Source: Candidatus Omnitrophota bacterium (GTDB taxonomy: Bacteria; Omnitrophota; Gorgyraeia; Duberdicusellales; 4484-171). Taken from it: a DNA stretch of 64,000 bases. This document shows, one piece after another, positions 3,692 to 52,785 of the stretch. The stretch is taken from positions 15,890-79,889 of the forward strand of contig JBAZGN010000004.1 in assembly GCA_041652815.1 (NCBI GenBank), given 5' to 3'. Under the pieces are notes generated by a model. The model was not told the origin of the DNA, ran no database searches, and worked only from the letters and a program-made list of their open reading frames with translations. Numbering within the stretch: the stretch's first letter is position 1; every line of letters begins with the position of its first letter. The position numbers and the translations under genes were made by a program.

Positions 3692-3881
3692 CGGGGATTA
3701 ATTCGCACTATTATTTTTCCTACGCGACTACCTACGGCAGGCAGTTTGGAAAAATAATGTGTTCATTAAAAGAATGACTATAGCTGGCTGGATTTTTTTA
3801 ATAATTTCCTGGGTGAGCATATTGATGCTCGTGATTTTTTGCATTTACGGGGTCTTCAAAGAACCGTATAAGGATCTATAA

Positions 3882-4781
3882 ATGTTTAAAAGAAAGCGTA
3901 TTATATTGGCTTTTTTTTCAATTGTTTTCTTGGCATCTTTTTGCCTTTATTTTATATACACCGAAACTGTTTCTTGCGCTCAAAATTATAAATCTTTCGC
4001 AGCGCTTGAAGATAAAGTAGCCACAATCGCAAAAGGGTTTAGCGGAGAGTATTCTTATATAATCAAGGATATAGAAAAGCCTTACTGTGAAATATCCCGC
4101 AATGAAAATAAAATGTTTCCCGCGGCAAGCGTCATAAAACTGCCCATAGCTGCGGTAGCTTTTAATGCAGCCAAAGAAGGAAAGGTTTCGCTTTCTCAGA
4201 AATTTACAATCACTGCGAAAGATATCACCGGAGGCTCGGGAATAATAAAAACAATGCAGCCGCCCGTGGTCTTAACCTTTCAGGAAATTATCGAAACAAT
4301 GATTGTAAATAGCGATAATACTGCAACCAACAAGATTATTGATATTTTAGGCTATAAATATCTAAACAGAGGATTTAGGGAACTAGGCTTGAGGCGAACG
4401 GTTATCAAGCGCAAAATGATGGATTTTTCGAATAGGAAACATGGAGTTGAAAATTATACCAGCGTGTCAGACATAGTTTTTCTTTTAGAGAAAATCTATA
4501 AAGGAAAACTTATCGATAAAGAATCTTCACAAATGATACTGTCGTTTCTGGGCAAGCAAAAGATTAATGACCGTATCCCGCGGTATCTGCCTAAAAATGT
4601 AAAAGTTGCTCATAAAACCGGCCTTGAGAGGGGTGTGGTGCATGATGCCGGAATTATTTTTTCTTCAAGGGGCGATTGCGTAGTTTGTGTTTTTACTAAA
4701 AAAGTGAAGGACTACAGTAAGGCAAAGAAATTCATCGCCCGCCTTTCCTTGGCAACGTATAATAATTTACGTGAACAATGA
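3882..4781 (+). CDS. Class A β-lactamase-like serine hydrolase
   Basis: Signal/TM N-terminus; S-x-x-K ('ASVIK'), SDN ('NSDNTA') and KTG ('HKTGLE') motifs in the canonical order. Confidence 0.7.
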   Translation: MFKRKRIILAFFSIVFLASFCLYFIYTETVSCAQNYKSFAALEDKVATIAKGFSGEYSYIIKDIEKPYCEISRNENKMFPAASVIKLPIAAVAFNAAKEGKVSLSQKFTITAKDITGGSGIIKTMQPPVVLTFQEIIETMIVNSDNTATNKIIDILGYKYLNRGFRELGLRRTVIKRKMMDFSNRKHGVENYTSVSDIVFLLEKIYKGKLIDKESSQMILSFLGKQKINDRIPRYLPKNVKVAHKTGLERGVVHDAGIIFSSRGDCVVCVFTKKVKDYSKAKKFIARLSLATYNNLREQ

Positions 4782-6799: not shown

Positions 6800-6913
6800 A
6801 ATAACCAATAACCAAGATACAATAACCAAACAAATCCCAATAACCAATAATCAATAACCAAATAATTCTTTTCTAAACCGTTTGGTTATTGGAAATTGGA
6901 GCTTGGTTATTTA
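6800..6913. repeat. Family-A interspersed repeat (AACCAA-rich arm / TTGGTT-rich arm), copy 1
   Basis: 'ATAACCAATAACCAAGATACAATAACCAAACAAATCCCAATAACCAATAATCAATAACCAAA...GTTTGGTTATTGGAAATTGGAGCTTGGTTATT' between atpC and atpI. Confidence 0.75.
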
Positions 6914-30564: not shown

Positions 30565-33009
30565 ATGAGACTTTACTCTGGAAGCTCTGCCCAATTTATC
30601 CAAGATGTCATTCAAAATCAAATAGCAGAAAAATTAAAACTAGCTTTTTTTGATTACTTTCGTTTTTATCCCTCACCCGGAGAAATAAATTCATGGAGAA
30701 ATTCTTTGAGATCGATTTCTCAGACTTTTCAATATGCAAATTTATTAGACCACGGAATAATCCTTGAATACCAGTTACCGTTGACTTCCAAAAGATTAGA
30801 TTGCTTAATTTGTGGTAAAGATAAAGAAAATATAGATAATTCTGTTATTGTGGAGCTAAAGCAATGGGATAAATGTGAGGAGGCTATTGGAGAGAATGAG
30901 GTTTTGACTTGGCTGGGCGGCGCTAAAAGAGAAGTGCTGCATCCTTCAGTTCAAGTCGGTCAATATAAGATGTATTTAGAAGATACACATACTGCTTTTA
31001 ATGTTGACGAGAATCCTATTAGATTAAATGCATGTACCTACTTACATAACTATAGTTATTATTCCGCGGATGTTATTTTTTCTCGTAAATTTAAACAAGC
31101 ATTAGATTCCTATCCATTGTTTACAGCAGACGATGTTGACAAAATGAAAGATTATTTGCTAGACAGATTAGCTTCAGGAATGGGCATGGAAGTTCTCAAA
31201 AGAGTGGAGAAAAGCAAATACAAGCCAAGTAAGAAATTAATGGATCATGTTGGGTCGGTAGTAAAGAATAAATTGAAAGGTAAAGACGTAAAAATCTTAG
31301 GAGGAGTTCAAAATGACTATATCCTTCTAGATGAGCAGTTAATTGCGTACGATAAAGTTTTAGCTTTGGTAAAAAGGGGTTTTCATGATAAACAAAAGAA
31401 TATCCTAATAATTAGTGGTGGTCCAGGAACAGGTAAATCGGTCATAGCATTGAAACTCTTAGCTGATTTAAATGAAATGCATTACAACGCGCAATATGCA
31501 ACTGGTTCAAAGTCATTTACGGAAACATTACGAAAAATTGTTGGGACAAGAGCTGCTGCACAATTCAAATATTTTTTGAGTTATGCTGATGCCCAAAGTA
31601 ACGAAATAGATATATTAATTTGTGATGAAGCTCATAGGATACGCGAAAAAACGGTCCGCAGATACGGTAGACCTTCCGGTATAAAACAAGTCGAAGAGAT
31701 AATCCAAGCCGCAAAAGTAGTAGTGTTTCTAATTGATCAAGATCAAATTGTCCGCCCCGGAGAAATAGGTTCCAGTGATTTAATTAAAGAATATGCAAAT
31801 AAACATATTTGTAAAATATCGGAATATGAATTAGCGGCTCAATTTAGGTGTAATGGTTCTGACGCTTTTATAAATTGGGTGAACAATACTTTGGTTATTA
31901 GGAAAACTGCTAATGTTATATGGGATTTGCATGAAGAATTTGATTTCAAAATATTTACATCGCCCTTTGAGCTAGAAAAGGCTATCAGAAATAAAGTAGA
32001 TAAAGGGTATACGGGCAGAGTAACTGCAGGTTTTTGTTGGGAATGGAACTATCCCAAGGAAGATGGTACCTTGATAGACGATGTTATAATCGGTGATTAC
32101 AAACGCCCCTGGGATGCTAAGCATGACGCAAAAAAACTTGCTTTAGGGATACCGAAGGCTTCATTTTGGGCCTACGATCCTAATGGTATAAATCAAATAG
32201 GATGTATCTATACGGCTCAGGGATTTGAGTTTGATTATGTTGGTGTAATCTTTGGTGAAGATCTTAAGTATAACTTTGATGAGCAGAACTGGGTAGCTCA
32301 CAAAGAAAATTTTGCTGACTCTCAAGTTTTAAGAGCGAAGGATGAAGACTTACTTAAATACCTAAAAAATATTTATCGTGTTCTCTTGACCAGAGGCATA
32401 AAGGGTTGTTATGTTTATTTCATGGACAAGGATACCGAACGTTTTTTTAAATCGCGTATCGAAGGTGTACCTATTTATAAAGAAGAAACGCTTAAGCTTT
32501 CTGATTTAGTTACCGTGGAAGATCAATTGATCCATAAAATTGAGCAAGATATTGCCGAAAATCTTAAATATGTAGAGTATTTACCAGTTTATTCTTTAGA
32601 GGTTGCTGCCGGTAATTTTGGTCAAGCCATGAGTAGCGAAGAAGAGGGATGGATCAAGACAGATATTGGTAAAAAGTTGGATAAACGAATGTTTGTTGCA
32701 AGAGTTGTTGGTCATTCGATGGAGCCTTTAATTCCGGAAGGCAGGTACTGTATTTTTAGGTGGGGGGTTGAGGGGACTAGACAAAATAAGATTGTTTTAG
32801 TTCAGCATAATAGCATTGCTGATCCTGATACTGGAGGCAAATATACAGTTAAGAAATATACGAGCAAGAAAAAAATTGTTGATGGTGTAGCATGGGAGCA
32901 CGAAGCAATAAAACTTTTGCCATTAAATACAGCTTACAAGCCTATAGATATTCCTAATTCAGAAGAGGGTAGCTTTATTGTGATAGCTGAATTTATTAAG
33001 GTATTGTAA
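30565..33009 (+). CDS. Fusion: N-terminal PD-(D/E)xK-like region + DUF2075-type P-loop/DEAH SF1 helicase-like ATPase + C-terminal LexA/CI-type S24 autopeptidase domain
   Basis: D79 and E97-x-K99 in hydrophobic strands; Walker A 'GGPGTGKS' (285-292); Walker B 'ICDEAH' (352-357); 'YTAQGFEFDYVGVI' and 'VLLTRG' DUF2075 hallmarks; C-terminal 'VAAG' (A682-G683), 'GHSMEP' (S718), 'TVKKY' (K763/764) with LexA-like spacing. Confidence 0.75.
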   Translation: MRLYSGSSAQFIQDVIQNQIAEKLKLAFFDYFRFYPSPGEINSWRNSLRSISQTFQYANLLDHGIILEYQLPLTSKRLDCLICGKDKENIDNSVIVELKQWDKCEEAIGENEVLTWLGGAKREVLHPSVQVGQYKMYLEDTHTAFNVDENPIRLNACTYLHNYSYYSADVIFSRKFKQALDSYPLFTADDVDKMKDYLLDRLASGMGMEVLKRVEKSKYKPSKKLMDHVGSVVKNKLKGKDVKILGGVQNDYILLDEQLIAYDKVLALVKRGFHDKQKNILIISGGPGTGKSVIALKLLADLNEMHYNAQYATGSKSFTETLRKIVGTRAAAQFKYFLSYADAQSNEIDILICDEAHRIREKTVRRYGRPSGIKQVEEIIQAAKVVVFLIDQDQIVRPGEIGSSDLIKEYANKHICKISEYELAAQFRCNGSDAFINWVNNTLVIRKTANVIWDLHEEFDFKIFTSPFELEKAIRNKVDKGYTGRVTAGFCWEWNYPKEDGTLIDDVIIGDYKRPWDAKHDAKKLALGIPKASFWAYDPNGINQIGCIYTAQGFEFDYVGVIFGEDLKYNFDEQNWVAHKENFADSQVLRAKDEDLLKYLKNIYRVLLTRGIKGCYVYFMDKDTERFFKSRIEGVPIYKEETLKLSDLVTVEDQLIHKIEQDIAENLKYVEYLPVYSLEVAAGNFGQAMSSEEEGWIKTDIGKKLDKRMFVARVVGHSMEPLIPEGRYCIFRWGVEGTRQNKIVLVQHNSIADPDTGGKYTVKKYTSKKKIVDGVAWEHEAIKLLPLNTAYKPIDIPNSEEGSFIVIAEFIKVL

Positions 33010-33011
33010 AT

Positions 33012-33704
33012 ATGATTAAATCCGGAGATGTTATTTCTTATTTAGATATGTGCAAAGAAGAAGGAGTTAACCTCCAGCGAGGAATGAATTATCGATTACG
33101 AAGTGGATTTAGTGTTATTCTTATGAGCGTAAGGCTCGGTGCGCCATATGCTGATAAGGTTGAAGAAAATGGTAAAATTCTAATTTATGAAGGTCATGAT
33201 ATTCCTCAAACAAGTGGGGGGCCTATTCCGAAAAAAGTAGATCAGCCTAAGAATAATCCCGGAGGCAGCTTAACTCAAAATGGCTTATTTTATAAAGCGG
33301 CTTTAGAATATAAAGATAAGCGAAAAGATCCAGAGTTAGTTAAGGTCTACGAGAAAATACGATCAGGAATTTGGGCATATAACGGCATATTTAAATTGAT
33401 AGACTCATGGCAAGAGAATAGTAACGCAAGAAAGGTTTTTAAATTCAAGCTTAAGATGGTAGAGGAAGTTCAAAGAAGTGTGATTAAGCAAAAAGATATC
33501 GAGCACAATAGACTAATTCCAACTTCTGTGAAACTAGAAGTTTGGAAACGAGATAAAGGTAAATGTGTGGTGTGTGGTAGTGCTGATAATTTGCATTTTG
33601 ATCATATAATTCCTTATTCGAGAGGAGGGTCTTCGTTGGTTGCAAAAAACGTTCAATTGTTGTGTGCAAGACATAATATTGGGAAACGAGATAAGATTGA
33701 ATAA
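33012..33704 (+). CDS. HNH endonuclease with N-terminal putative modified-base-binding (SRA/YDG- or PUA-like) domain; candidate type IV restriction enzyme
   Basis: C-terminal 'CVVCGSADNLHFDHIIPYSRGG...NVQLLCARHN' Zn-HNH motif; N-terminal about 170 aa with 'G..hxYxG' core reminiscent of SRA; starts 3 nt after the helicase gene. Confidence 0.6.
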   Translation: MIKSGDVISYLDMCKEEGVNLQRGMNYRLRSGFSVILMSVRLGAPYADKVEENGKILIYEGHDIPQTSGGPIPKKVDQPKNNPGGSLTQNGLFYKAALEYKDKRKDPELVKVYEKIRSGIWAYNGIFKLIDSWQENSNARKVFKFKLKMVEEVQRSVIKQKDIEHNRLIPTSVKLEVWKRDKGKCVVCGSADNLHFDHIIPYSRGGSSLVAKNVQLLCARHNIGKRDKIE

Positions 33705-33757
33705 ATAATAGTTCCATTTTTAAAAAATAGATACTTTTGGAATTATTTTTTAATTAC

Positions 33758-34165
33758 ATGTTCGACAAATTAGATTTCTTCCAACTTCTACCCCGTCTTC
33801 GACGTTCTAAATTCCGTTCCAAATTTAAACTCGACCAAAAGGATTTGGATTATATTGAAAAAGTGGGGATGGAGAAGATAAAACAGCATGCGCAGGATTT
33901 TATAGAAAAGCGGCTAGCGCCGGCAGAGCCGCCGAATGACGGAAGACAAACACCATTCAAGGGGCATCCGGTTTTTAAGGCACAGCATGCAACCGCCACT
34001 TGCTGCCGCAGTTGCCTTCTAAAATGGCATTCAATTCCTAAAGGCCGCGCGTTAACTGCTGATGAATGTCAGAAAATTATCGATATCTTACTCGCCTGGA
34101 TTGTCTGGCAAACCAATTCCACCCCGGAGGTGGAACGCAGCACAAACCTAAATCCCACCGCGTAG
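33758..34165 (+). CDS. DUF4186 family protein
   Basis: 'RSKFRSKF', 'RLAPAEPPNDGRQTPFKGHPVFKAQHATATCCRSCLLKWH' match the DUF4186 hallmark as remembered; start assigned to the internal ATG. Confidence 0.55.
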   Translation: MFDKLDFFQLLPRLRRSKFRSKFKLDQKDLDYIEKVGMEKIKQHAQDFIEKRLAPAEPPNDGRQTPFKGHPVFKAQHATATCCRSCLLKWHSIPKGRALTADECQKIIDILLAWIVWQTNSTPEVERSTNLNPTA

Positions 34166-34189: not shown

Positions 34190-34229
34190 TTACACTACAT
34201 TTTAAATTTCATGGTATAATGTAGTGTAA
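34190..34229. promoter_or_regulatory. Palindromic element (12-bp arms TTACACTACATT/AATGTAGTGTAA, 16-bp spacer containing TATAAT) just upstream of the two-gene cassette
   Basis: Perfect inverted repeat read directly; -10-like TATAAT inside; AAGGAGG RBS and ATG 34245 follow. Confidence 0.7.
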
Positions 34230-34244
34230 AAACAAGGAGGCATT

Positions 34245-34550
34245 ATGAAGGTATTAAAAGGTATTTTATCGGAGAGTAAAGAATACTATCTTAGCATTAA
34301 GCGAAAGATAGAAAAAAGGCTCACAGAGCTACCTAAAGGTAGTATTAAGGAGCGAAGAATTTCAGGACAAAAATATTATTACCTGCAACAGCGAGTCGGG
34401 AAGAAGATATCACACAAGTATTTAGGGAAGCAAAAGCCAGAGCTTATTATAAAACAAATAAAAGAACGGGATGTTTTGAAACTTGAGTTAAAAAAAGTAA
34501 TCGCGTCCCTTAAAATGATACGAAAGTCAGAAGGCAAAAAACATGGTTGA
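34245..34550 (+). CDS. Small basic protein, putative partner/antitoxin of the downstream nucleotidyltransferase
   Basis: 101 aa, Lys/Arg-rich; strong RBS; stop overlaps the downstream start (ATGGTTGA). Confidence 0.5.
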   Translation: MKVLKGILSESKEYYLSIKRKIEKRLTELPKGSIKERRISGQKYYYLQQRVGKKISHKYLGKQKPELIIKQIKERDVLKLELKKVIASLKMIRKSEGKKHG

Positions 34551-35232
34551 ATCAGTTAATAAAATACTTAAGGTATTTGCTGACAATGGTCTTTTTGAAG
34601 AAGGAGTAGAGCTTATTGGAAGCTGGTGTTTCCACCTCTATCAAAAACATCTGGGCGCAAAAAGTTTTCCATTGAGGACGCAAGATATTGATTTTCTGAT
34701 ACCTAATCCTTATCGTGGGAAGGAGCATAAAGATTTTATAGACCAGCTAAAGGAATTGGGTTTTAATTACGATTTTAGTAATAATGGGTCTTTATATCTT
34801 TGGAACGCTGATTTTAAAATAGAATTTATAACTCCCCTAAAGGGCCGTGGATTAGAAAAGAGCATAAAGATTAAGGCGTTTGGTTTTAAAGCCATACCGC
34901 TAAGATTCGTTGATTTATTGTTAAACCACCCTATCAATATAAACGATAATGGCATTAATATTAAAATACCTAATCCAGCTAATTTTTGTCTTCACAAACT
35001 TATAGTCGCATCGCGTAGAAAAAAATTAGACAAAGCTTCAAAGGATTTACAACAGGCAATTTGTACCTCTGTAATCTTGGATAAACAAGAAGTTAAGAAA
35101 TTATTTGAGACTTTGCCAAAAAAATGGAAAAAAGCGATTTTAAAAATGCTAGAAAAGTCCAAAAAAGAATTGCCTTTATTACTTGAAGAAATAAATCAAT
35201 TAGAATTTACACTACAAGGTACTAAAAAATAA
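34543..35232 (+). CDS. Nucleotidyltransferase-fold protein, AbiEii/DUF1814-like (putative type IV TA toxin / Abi effector)
   Basis: 'IGSWCFHLY...RTQDIDFLI' resembles the G[GS]...R.S.DIDF nucleotidyltransferase motif; translationally coupled to the upstream small gene. Confidence 0.5.
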   Translation: MVESVNKILKVFADNGLFEEGVELIGSWCFHLYQKHLGAKSFPLRTQDIDFLIPNPYRGKEHKDFIDQLKELGFNYDFSNNGSLYLWNADFKIEFITPLKGRGLEKSIKIKAFGFKAIPLRFVDLLLNHPININDNGINIKIPNPANFCLHKLIVASRRKKLDKASKDLQQAICTSVILDKQEVKKLFETLPKKWKKAILKMLEKSKKELPLLLEEINQLEFTLQGTKK

Positions 35233-35246
35233 ATAATGTAGTGTAA
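35207..35246. repeat. Second copy of the cassette-flanking palindrome (TTACACTACA ... TGTAGTGTAA, 18-bp spacer)
   Basis: Shares 'AATTTACACTACA' and 'ATAATGTAGTGTAA' with the 34190-34229 copy; overlaps the last codons of the nucleotidyltransferase gene. Confidence 0.7.
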
Positions 35247-35328
35247 TGGATAACTGGTTAAAATCCTAAAAAAACCGAATCCTGCCTCGTAGGTGGGCGT
35301 GGAAAGAATGTAAAAAACATCATTCGCT

Positions 35329-52642: not shown

Positions 52643-52785
52643 AAATAACCAAGCTCCAAGAAACAATAACCAAACAATGACCAATAACCAAATCTCAATA
52701 ACCAAACATTCTCGTTTGGTTATTGGTCATTGGGAGTTGGATATTGTTTGTATCTTGTATCTTGATTATTGGTTATTTTAATCGA
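52643..52785. repeat. Family-A repeat, copy 3
   Basis: Degenerate AACCAA arm and TTGGTTATTGGTCATTGG arm; between pdxA and rsmA; abuts a family-B fragment. Confidence 0.65.

Follow-up and report, generated by a model that had tools for sequence, protein, structure and literature searches.

What do two copies of one palindrome do at the opposite ends of a pair of small genes? The question is raised by a stretch of 64,000 nucleotides (nt) from a contig of a Candidatus Omnitrophota bacterium (JBAZGN010000004.1; hereafter the window), in which a 40-base-pair (bp) palindrome stands just upstream of a gene for a basic protein of 101 amino acids (aa), and recurs at the 3′ end of the gene that follows, which encodes a 229-aa nucleotidyltransferase. 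An earlier note had described the two genes as a toxin–antitoxin-like pair and had read the palindromes either as autoregulatory operators or as the boundaries of a cassette captured by site-specific recombination. From the comparative analysis described below we favour, at a probability of about 0.55, the reading of the module as a self-contained, horizontally mobile and autoregulated toxin–antitoxin-like operon.

Sequence constraint on the two palindromes

Direct reading of the window confirmed both copies of the palindrome, which we call site A (upstream) and site B (downstream; Table 1). The exact pattern TTACACTACA-N20-TGTAGTGTAA is present twice in the 64-kb window, and the arm 10-mer is confined to the four arms of these two sites. 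When up to three mismatches were allowed in the 40-nt pattern, the window again gave two matches, against none in 100 dinucleotide-preserving shuffles. The longest perfect arms of site A are 12 nt (TTACACTACATT-N16-AATGTAGTGTAA), around core arms of 10 nt with N20. Site B has 10-nt arms and a spacer of 20 nt; the N18 first reported for it is incorrect, since its own coordinates span 40 nt. The distance from A to B is 1017 nt for the left arms and for the right arms, and the internal spacing of the two sites is thus identical. As the earlier note had stated, site B overlaps the last codons of the nucleotidyltransferase gene: its left arm codes for F-T-L-Q, the stop codon TAA (35230-35232) sits in the spacer, which leaves the right arm outside the coding sequence.

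Table 1. Features of the module in the window and of related layouts at other loci (positions at L-numbered loci are those of the locus)
Feature	Position	Strand	Description
Site A, 40-bp palindrome	34190..34229	.	Proposed promoter operator; same place upstream of the small gene in relatives
Extended -10 element TGGTATAAT	34212..34220	+	Inside site A; final T opens the right arm
Shine-Dalgarno GGAGG of the small gene	34236..34240	+	6 nt past the right arm; ATG at 34245
101-aa basic DUF6788 protein	34245..34550	+	Proposed repressor/antitoxin, binding DNA via a three-stranded beta-sheet
229-aa PF12281 (NTP_transf_8 / GSU2403-family) nucleotidyltransferase	34543..35232	+	Proposed toxin/effector
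Site B, second palindrome copy	35207..35246	.	Proposed auxiliary operator and module end
Tail after site B, ~35 nt	35247..35281	+	Common only to the closest relative, L003
Tandem sites, L065	2851-2937		
Tandem sites, L068	161-267		
Tandem sites, L069	1100-1205		
Tandem sites, L151	1565-1649		
Fused protein, L055	2686-3735		
Fused protein, L053	2635-3693		
Fused protein, L056			

Loci of relatives were collected from scans and are labelled L followed by a number; all counts of modules given here rest on these loci, among the matches listed. Both proteins have hundreds of close homologs, mostly from Candidatus Omnitrophota, whose lengths are always 101 and about 229 aa, and a profile of the small protein gathered 941 clusters at 50% identity, mostly of ~100 aa with some of ~335 aa. 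A scan with one genome per species returned 52 loci, the hosts being Omnitrophota, Margulisiibacteriota, Elusimicrobiota, Armatimonadota, metagenome-assembled genomes (MAGs) labelled Planctomycetia and single delta- and gammaproteobacterial MAGs. Most of the 52 loci have both sites, with invariant arms and N20 (±1), and the arms are unchanged even at ~45-50% enzyme identity, where the spacers are wholly altered; a third copy of the palindrome within ±3 kb was found in none of them. An exact-pattern scan of metagenome contigs added at least 120 rows and a viral scan 5 loci. In total, both palindromes and their spacing are seen in 86 related modules, mostly from Omnitrophota, and the pattern-derived loci hold 182 sites, 85 of A-type, 58 of B-type and 39 unassigned. 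The search of relatives proposed in the earlier note therefore found the palindrome at more than 100 loci in several phyla.

Site B is under selection at the level of DNA inside coding sequence. The Leu codon in its arm is CTA in 75 of 77 distinct enzyme genes, compared with 3-11 of 77 at other conserved Leu positions, where five or six codons are in use, and the Gln that follows the arm Leu is encoded by CAA in 64 of 74 genes. In an alignment of homologs the C-terminal TLQ is kept while the rest of the enzyme tail varies, and the overlap of the stop codon with site B is constant, the stop lying in the spacer in the modules inspected. Substitutions in the site B arms were uncompensated among the relatives compared, and the RNA hairpin that the site could form is weak (-9.8 kcal/mol, z -1.8). 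A terminator scan found no intrinsic terminator after the operon, there is no U-tract at the site B hairpin and the palindrome region has no Rfam match. Taken together, the codon bias, the uncompensated arm changes, the weak hairpin and the lack of Rfam and terminator matches indicate that the double-stranded sequence is the selected feature.

Site A by contrast carries promoter elements, to which the earlier note had already drawn attention and which are read directly in the sequence: TATAAT in the spacer and a ribosome-binding site just downstream. Over 81 distinct modules the consensus of the site is TTACACTACAtttttaattTTaTG.TATAATGTAGTGTAA. TATAAT, within the pattern TGnTATAAT, occupies a fixed place overlapping the right arm in 65 of the 81, TG is found at -15/-14 in 62 of 81, and the Shine-Dalgarno motif begins 0-1 nt past the right arm in 63 of 81; the same comparison of 81 modules found no TATAAT at the equivalent position of site B. 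A consensus promoter scan passed over site A because the site is without a -35 element. We infer from position and conservation that the site A spacer probably functions as a promoter. The spacer with its promoter (CATTTTTAATTTTATGCTATAAT) also recurs elsewhere, upstream of a DUF5674 gene and a 94-aa gene (L025, 2000-2035 and 2977-3012; L172, 240-275), where the copies lack the right arm and have a left arm of variant sequence (TTAGGCTACA / TTAGCCTACA). A lone right half-site lies at a rearrangement junction in L025 (3079-3088).

The nucleotidyltransferase and its DUF6788 partner

The enzyme gene overlaps the small gene by 8 nt (ATGGTTGA, 34543-34550). Its product matches Pfam PF12281 over residues 5-189 (E 2.7e-29; 103.2 bits against a cut-off of 26.3), its homologs are named 'GSU2403 family nucleotidyltransferase fold protein' by NCBI, and the GS...RTQDIDF motif recognized earlier is present as G26S27...R45TQDIDF51. 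Residues G26, S27, D48, D50, K92 and E94 are invariant over 30 homologs, and the catalytic motifs of a nucleotidyltransferase, namely hG[GS], DxD and the third carboxylate, are thus in place. The AlphaFold2 model of the enzyme (predicted local distance difference test, pLDDT, 89.2) has as its top Foldseek match the MenT1 toxin (8an5_B; E 3e-5, probability 1.0, template-modelling (TM) score 0.44/0.52), followed by ANT(2'')-Ia and TM1012. By sequence, the enzyme matches no chain in the PDB. NCBIfam holds no meaningful match for either the 101-aa or the 229-aa protein, and no PADLOC model matches the pair.

The description of the enzyme as AbiEii-like stands at the level of fold and motif. It does not extend to the hidden Markov model family: hmmscan at E≤0.1 returned PF12281 only, which excludes membership of AbiEii (PF08843/DUF1814), and in a control the true AbiEii genes of L082 and L153 did match PF08843. 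This is a verdict on membership rather than on mechanism. Like AbiE (PMC3985639; PMC7319586), the module is bicistronic, with the (here putative) DNA-binding protein encoded first and the nucleotidyltransferase-fold (candidate) toxin second, and the two systems share the catalytic motif hG[GS]...R-T-x-D-h-D-F. AbiE uses promoter inverted repeats for negative autoregulation, with which a palindrome lying over an extended -10 element would be compatible. The differences, however, are substantial. The AbiE toxin belongs to PF08843/DUF1814 and the module enzyme to PF12281; AbiEi is a two-domain protein of ~200-300 aa, with a winged helix at the N terminus and a neutralising domain at the C terminus, whereas the partner here is a 101-aa alpha-beta3-alpha DUF6788 protein with no AbiEi Pfam match and no helix-turn-helix in its AlphaFold2 model; the AbiE repeats are 23 bp long and 3 bp apart, whereas the module arms are 10 nt long and 20 nt apart; and the module, unlike AbiE, has a second copy of its palindrome where the nucleotidyltransferase gene ends. 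We do not count the module as an AbiE member, since neither of its proteins has the defining AbiE domain.

The nearest fold to the enzyme model is that of MenAT1 from M. tuberculosis (MenT1/Rv0078A with MenA1; PMC10435456; PDB 8an5), which likewise pairs a small nucleotidyltransferase toxin with a small cognate partner. MenT1 and the enzyme are 14% identical, with a TM score of 0.44-0.52 and no relation at the level of sequence, and their partners are unrelated. MenT toxins act by adding nucleotides to the acceptor ends of tRNA and are neutralised by their cognate partners; a similar toxicity may be proposed for the module enzyme on the indirect evidence of the recurrent loss of its gene with retention of the partner, described below.

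The 101-aa protein is strongly basic, as the earlier note had remarked, Lys and Arg far outnumbering Asp and Glu when counted by eye. Precomputed annotation places PF20586 (DUF6788) on exactly this gene (L004 3703-4008) and on all of at least 120 homologs; a local Pfam hmmscan gave no PF20586 match even at E≤1, nor one for P0039, the model being possibly missing from that copy of Pfam. In the AlphaFold2 model (pLDDT 90.7) helices span residues 2-28 and 66-96 and strands residues 33-39, 42-51 and 54-61, giving a predicted fold in which an antiparallel sheet of three strands (33-61) lies between two long helices, which form a helical hairpin. The residues that are invariant in distant homologs (P30, G32, Y46, R50 and G61) are located in or next to the sheet. 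Foldseek returned no significant match for this model, and the protein has no PDB relative by sequence; the best of the non-significant matches (E 0.26) are to P4/HPI-like integrases, in their arm-type DNA-binding domains. A full-text literature search found no paper on DUF6788 or PF12281 and none discussing the palindrome. Papers containing either arm 10-mer were unrelated among those inspected, and GSU2403 was named only in an unrelated context.

The palindrome co-varies with the subfamily of the DUF6788 protein. In one subfamily (L065, L068, L069 and L151) the small protein is only 33-37% identical to that of the window and has the same half-site, but the layout is tandem: a pair of 40-bp sites, 4-27 nt apart, precedes the small gene, and the enzyme gene has none at its 3′ end. 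This layout makes two sites per operon a conserved theme. In more distant relatives (L053, L055 and L056) a DUF6788-like N-terminal region is fused to PF12281 in proteins of ~350 aa, which argues for physical and functional coupling of the two proteins. The 349-aa fused proteins of L055 and L056 have a palindrome of their own just upstream (TTACCCACT-N13-AGTGGGTAA), in which TATAAT straddles the left arm and the spacer. Directly before a divergent DUF6788 gene in L082 lies TTTACCAAACA-N21-TGTTTGGTAAA, whose spacer contains TATAAT.

Enzyme loss, mobility and solo sites

The enzyme gene has been lost or damaged repeatedly. Internal deletions are of at least three kinds, removing residues 41-162, about 105-166 or 81-133 (loci L067/L114, L104/L154 and L160/L166), and the gene is wholly lost in L084, L090 and L169. 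In every one of these variants the small gene, site A and site B are retained. In L090 the small open reading frame (ORF) continues in frame into the last residues of the enzyme (...NFTLQNVNKQTL), and in L084, from a GC-rich host, the AT-rich arms persist amid GC-rich surroundings and a GC-rich spacer. Such a pattern is what would be expected if the enzyme were harmful and if the small protein and both sites made up a functional unit.

The module has sharp ends. Across 86 oriented modules, homology ends 0-20 nt outside site A in 93% of pairs, and those alignments that reach site B end 0-5 nt beyond it. Pairs of modules with 86-92% nucleotide identity still have unrelated flanks. We conclude that the unit has moved as a discrete block of which the palindromes are the outermost parts. 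No target-site duplication was seen in 84 of 86 modules, the longest word shared between flanks averaging 4.78 nt against 4.75 nt in the control; in L148/L149 an 8-nt direct repeat (TAATATGA) abuts both module ends and is the sole candidate for such a duplication among the 86. A single integrase query over 959 kb of loci recovered one locus and a fragment in a second, and the same type of limited, single-query search gave nothing significant in the window (best E 0.68). An empty site corresponding to the insertion in the window was sought in the closest relatives of the downstream hydrolase gene (78-84% identity), which have other genes upstream and no palindrome.

About 20% of the exact-palindrome matches, among the matches listed, are solo sites, and a profile search of six-frame ORFs for DUF6788 left ~25 exact-palindrome loci with no DUF6788/PF12281 gene. 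Five or six loci show remnants of a module: the site B spacer of L118 and L172 matches that of L025 exactly, 108 nt from the enzyme 3′ end survive in L136, a B-type solo copy (L127) is on the same contig as a full module (L074), and L057 and L061 share a flank typical of site B. The orphan sites include the 3′ ends of AbiEii genes and five viral contigs.

Several of these sites have neighbours of their own. In L153 the palindrome (1053-1092) directly follows a true AbiEii (PF08843) gene, just past its stop codon, and in L082 it occurs (1743-1782 and 3870-3910) within a toxin–antitoxin island that holds a confirmed AbiEii gene with a weak AbiEi-like partner, a second AbiE-like pair recognized by eye and the divergent DUF6788 gene. 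In L132 it adjoins an integrase gene and a Vsr-like gene. Phage-like contigs L098, L099, L140 and L177-L181 (the last five from IMG/VR) carry the exact palindrome with no DUF6788/PF12281 gene nearby; L140, L178 and L179 are of one phage lineage. The phage copies may be remnants, decoys or targets acted on in trans, and the orphan sites beside AbiEii genes, in L132 and on phage contigs may likewise be remnants, trans targets or recombination sites.

We compared the module with known classes of mobile unit. Integron gene cassettes, delimited by attC, often carry toxin–antitoxin pairs. They resemble the module in that an imperfect palindrome closes a small mobile gene unit on its 3′ side and palindromes flank the cargo. 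The sites described here are not attC: R''/L''/L'/R' boxes and the GTTRRRY core are both missing, each unit has two sites and the units do not form arrays, the one integrase query found no integron integrase, and the upstream site contains the putative promoter. Nor are they repetitive extragenic palindromic (REP) elements with an associated tyrosine transposase (RAYT), there being two copies in 64 kb and the same sequence across phyla; an ORF resembling an IS200/RAYT-type Y1 transposase (…FYHVYHRGN…) was recognized by eye only at L062, where it lies (175-549) 23 nt from a solo palindrome (113-152). A transposon or insertion sequence was rejected as well, as there is no general target-site duplication and neither protein matches a transposase family.

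The neighbourhood of the module in the window has the look of a defence island. Directly upstream (30565-34165) are three genes, which encode an 814-aa protein with a Schlafen-group-3-type helicase and an S24 (LexA-like) peptidase (weak PADLOC matches: PDC-S41, AbiO and Nhi), a 230-aa SRA-like and HNH nuclease, and a DUF4186 protein. In a related genome (L182) a SIR2_2 gene takes the same place upstream of the hydrolase gene. The window also contains a second, unrelated palindrome family (CAATAACCAAA...TTTGGTTATTG) at 6852-6891 and 52679-52728, with spacers of 18-20 nt and, in the latter copy, a duplicated left arm. Both copies are intergenic, and their neighbours, judged by eye, look like housekeeping genes (V-type ATPase subunits; pdxA and ksgA).

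Proposed autoregulation and competing explanations

The comparative evidence lends support to the toxin–antitoxin-like pair and the autoregulatory operators suggested in the earlier note, and the mechanism that we propose is as follows. The DUF6788 protein, with its predicted three-stranded sheet on a helical hairpin, would recognise the half-site TTACACTACA. Site A would offer it two inverted half-sites, their centres 30 bp apart, that span the extended -10 element and the transcription start, and binding there would shut the operon off, in a case of negative autoregulation. Site B would be an auxiliary 3′ operator placed over the last codons and the stop codon of the enzyme gene; protein bound to it might cooperate with site A via a DNA loop of ~1 kb, form a roadblock where the enzyme gene ends, or do both. 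The PF12281 enzyme would be the effector or toxin, probably acting by MenT/AbiEii-type nucleotidyl transfer to tRNA or another RNA, and would be held in check by the small protein.

Precedents exist for parts of this scheme. Auxiliary operators that act with DNA looping include lac O2, inside lacZ, and gal OE/OI. As in those systems, a second operator inside or beyond the coding region could cooperate with the operator at the promoter; in the module, where looping is our proposal, the operators differ in bracketing the whole operon and in coinciding with the ends of the mobile unit. AbiEi and Rv2827c repress their nucleotidyltransferase toxin operons via one or two inverted-repeat pairs over the promoter (PMC7319586). 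The Rv2827c-Rv2826c promoter has four inverted repeats arranged as two tandem pairs for one antitoxin (PMC7319586), which is the layout of the tandem subfamily, whereas in the subfamily of the window the second pair lies ~1 kb away, at the operon end and partly in coding sequence.

Several observations weigh against this reading. At E 0.26 the small protein has no significant fold match, and how it would bind DNA is conjecture. The enzyme has no PADLOC or AbiEii match. The fusion of DUF6788 to PF12281 would fit two domains of one enzyme equally well. Invariance of the half-site at 33-37% protein identity is unusual for toxin–antitoxin operators, which usually diverge. Finally, the ~25 orphan sites would not be explained by a pure cis operator unless they are remnants or trans targets.

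The first alternative is that a mobile gene cassette recombines at the palindromes, which would be its ends, any regulatory role being secondary: a recombinase or transposase acting in trans would excise the segment from A to B, leave a solo site and reinsert the segment elsewhere. The cassette boundaries of the earlier note draw strength from the end of module homology at the outer edges of the palindromes, from the unrelated flanks of even close relatives, from the solo sites (including L127, which shares its contig with a full module), from the 8-nt repeat in L148/L149 and from the resemblance of the small protein, in its best fold matches, to integrase arm-binding domains. Sharp limits, however, would also follow if no selected element lay beyond the palindromes. 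Moreover, no linked recombinase was found with the one integrase query, no general target-site duplication is apparent and the sites lack a GTTRRRY/attC architecture. Unlike crossover regions, the spacers of 20 nt vary in sequence and are not shared by A and B, and that of site A is the putative promoter. In close relatives homology runs 7-19 nt past site A, which places the junction outside the site; the tandem-site subfamily brackets nothing; and the palindrome is missing from the matching position in L183, where a relative of the downstream gene is found. On balance we regard recombination ends as unlikely.

Equally unlikely, in our judgement, is a variant of the autoregulatory mechanism in which site B serves mainly as a roadblock or insulator and not as a looping partner. 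Small protein bound there would stop RNA polymerase, insulate the downstream genes and, at high levels of the small protein, yield truncated enzyme transcripts without a stop codon. The constant overlap of site B with the stop codon fits such a role, as do the lack of an intrinsic terminator after the operon and the retention of B in enzyme-less mini-modules. The last point also tells against it, since retention after loss of the enzyme implies a role that is not specific to the enzyme transcript, and the tandem-site subfamily functions without any 3′ site.

The sharp ends, the solo sites, the L148/L149 repeat and the lack of a linked classical recombinase leave some room for a new kind of minimal mobile element, in which the palindromes would be recombination ends, the DUF6788 protein would bind them, excision would leave solo palindromes and the nucleotidyltransferase-fold protein would either travel as addictive cargo or take part in strand transfer; we consider this very doubtful. 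Lower still is the likelihood that the palindromes act as RNA or single-strand hairpins, whether to stabilise the transcript, to terminate transcription, or to serve the nucleotidyltransferase as substrate or antidote RNA. The perfect stems of 10-13 bp would suit a hairpin, the site A region reaches -13.5 kcal/mol (z -3.9), some solo sites lengthen the stem to 15 bp with a 10-nt loop, and the same palindrome stands beside AbiEii-type nucleotidyltransferase genes. The left arm of A, however, would not be transcribed from a promoter inside A, the hairpin at B is weak and without a U-tract or Rfam match, and the sequence is invariant beyond what structure alone demands. We rejected the hairpin on account of the weak energy and the uncompensated substitutions. 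Chance repeats or a generic, genome-wide REP-like repeat can be dismissed: palindromes of similar size do recur in intergenic regions of the window, but no shuffle reproduced this one, its only two copies in 64 kb are both at the gene pair, and the sites are position-locked to that pair in 86 modules of several phyla.

If the autoregulated operon is the correct reading, the pair gains a testable function, as a MenT/AbiE-like toxin with a new beta-sheet repressor/antitoxin whose operator would be TTACACTACA-N20-TGTAGTGTAA. It would be unusual among toxin–antitoxin systems in three respects: a second operator brackets the operon and dictates the codons of the last residues of the toxin; the half-site is essentially invariant over several phyla and between proteins of ~35% identity; and the operators mark the bounds of the transferred unit. 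This last feature would make the module a good system for asking how small toxin–antitoxin modules move, and it would suit the further question of whether 3′ operators control a toxin by looping or by roadblock. Omnitrophota, where the module is abundant, are a group in which experimental genetics is scarce.

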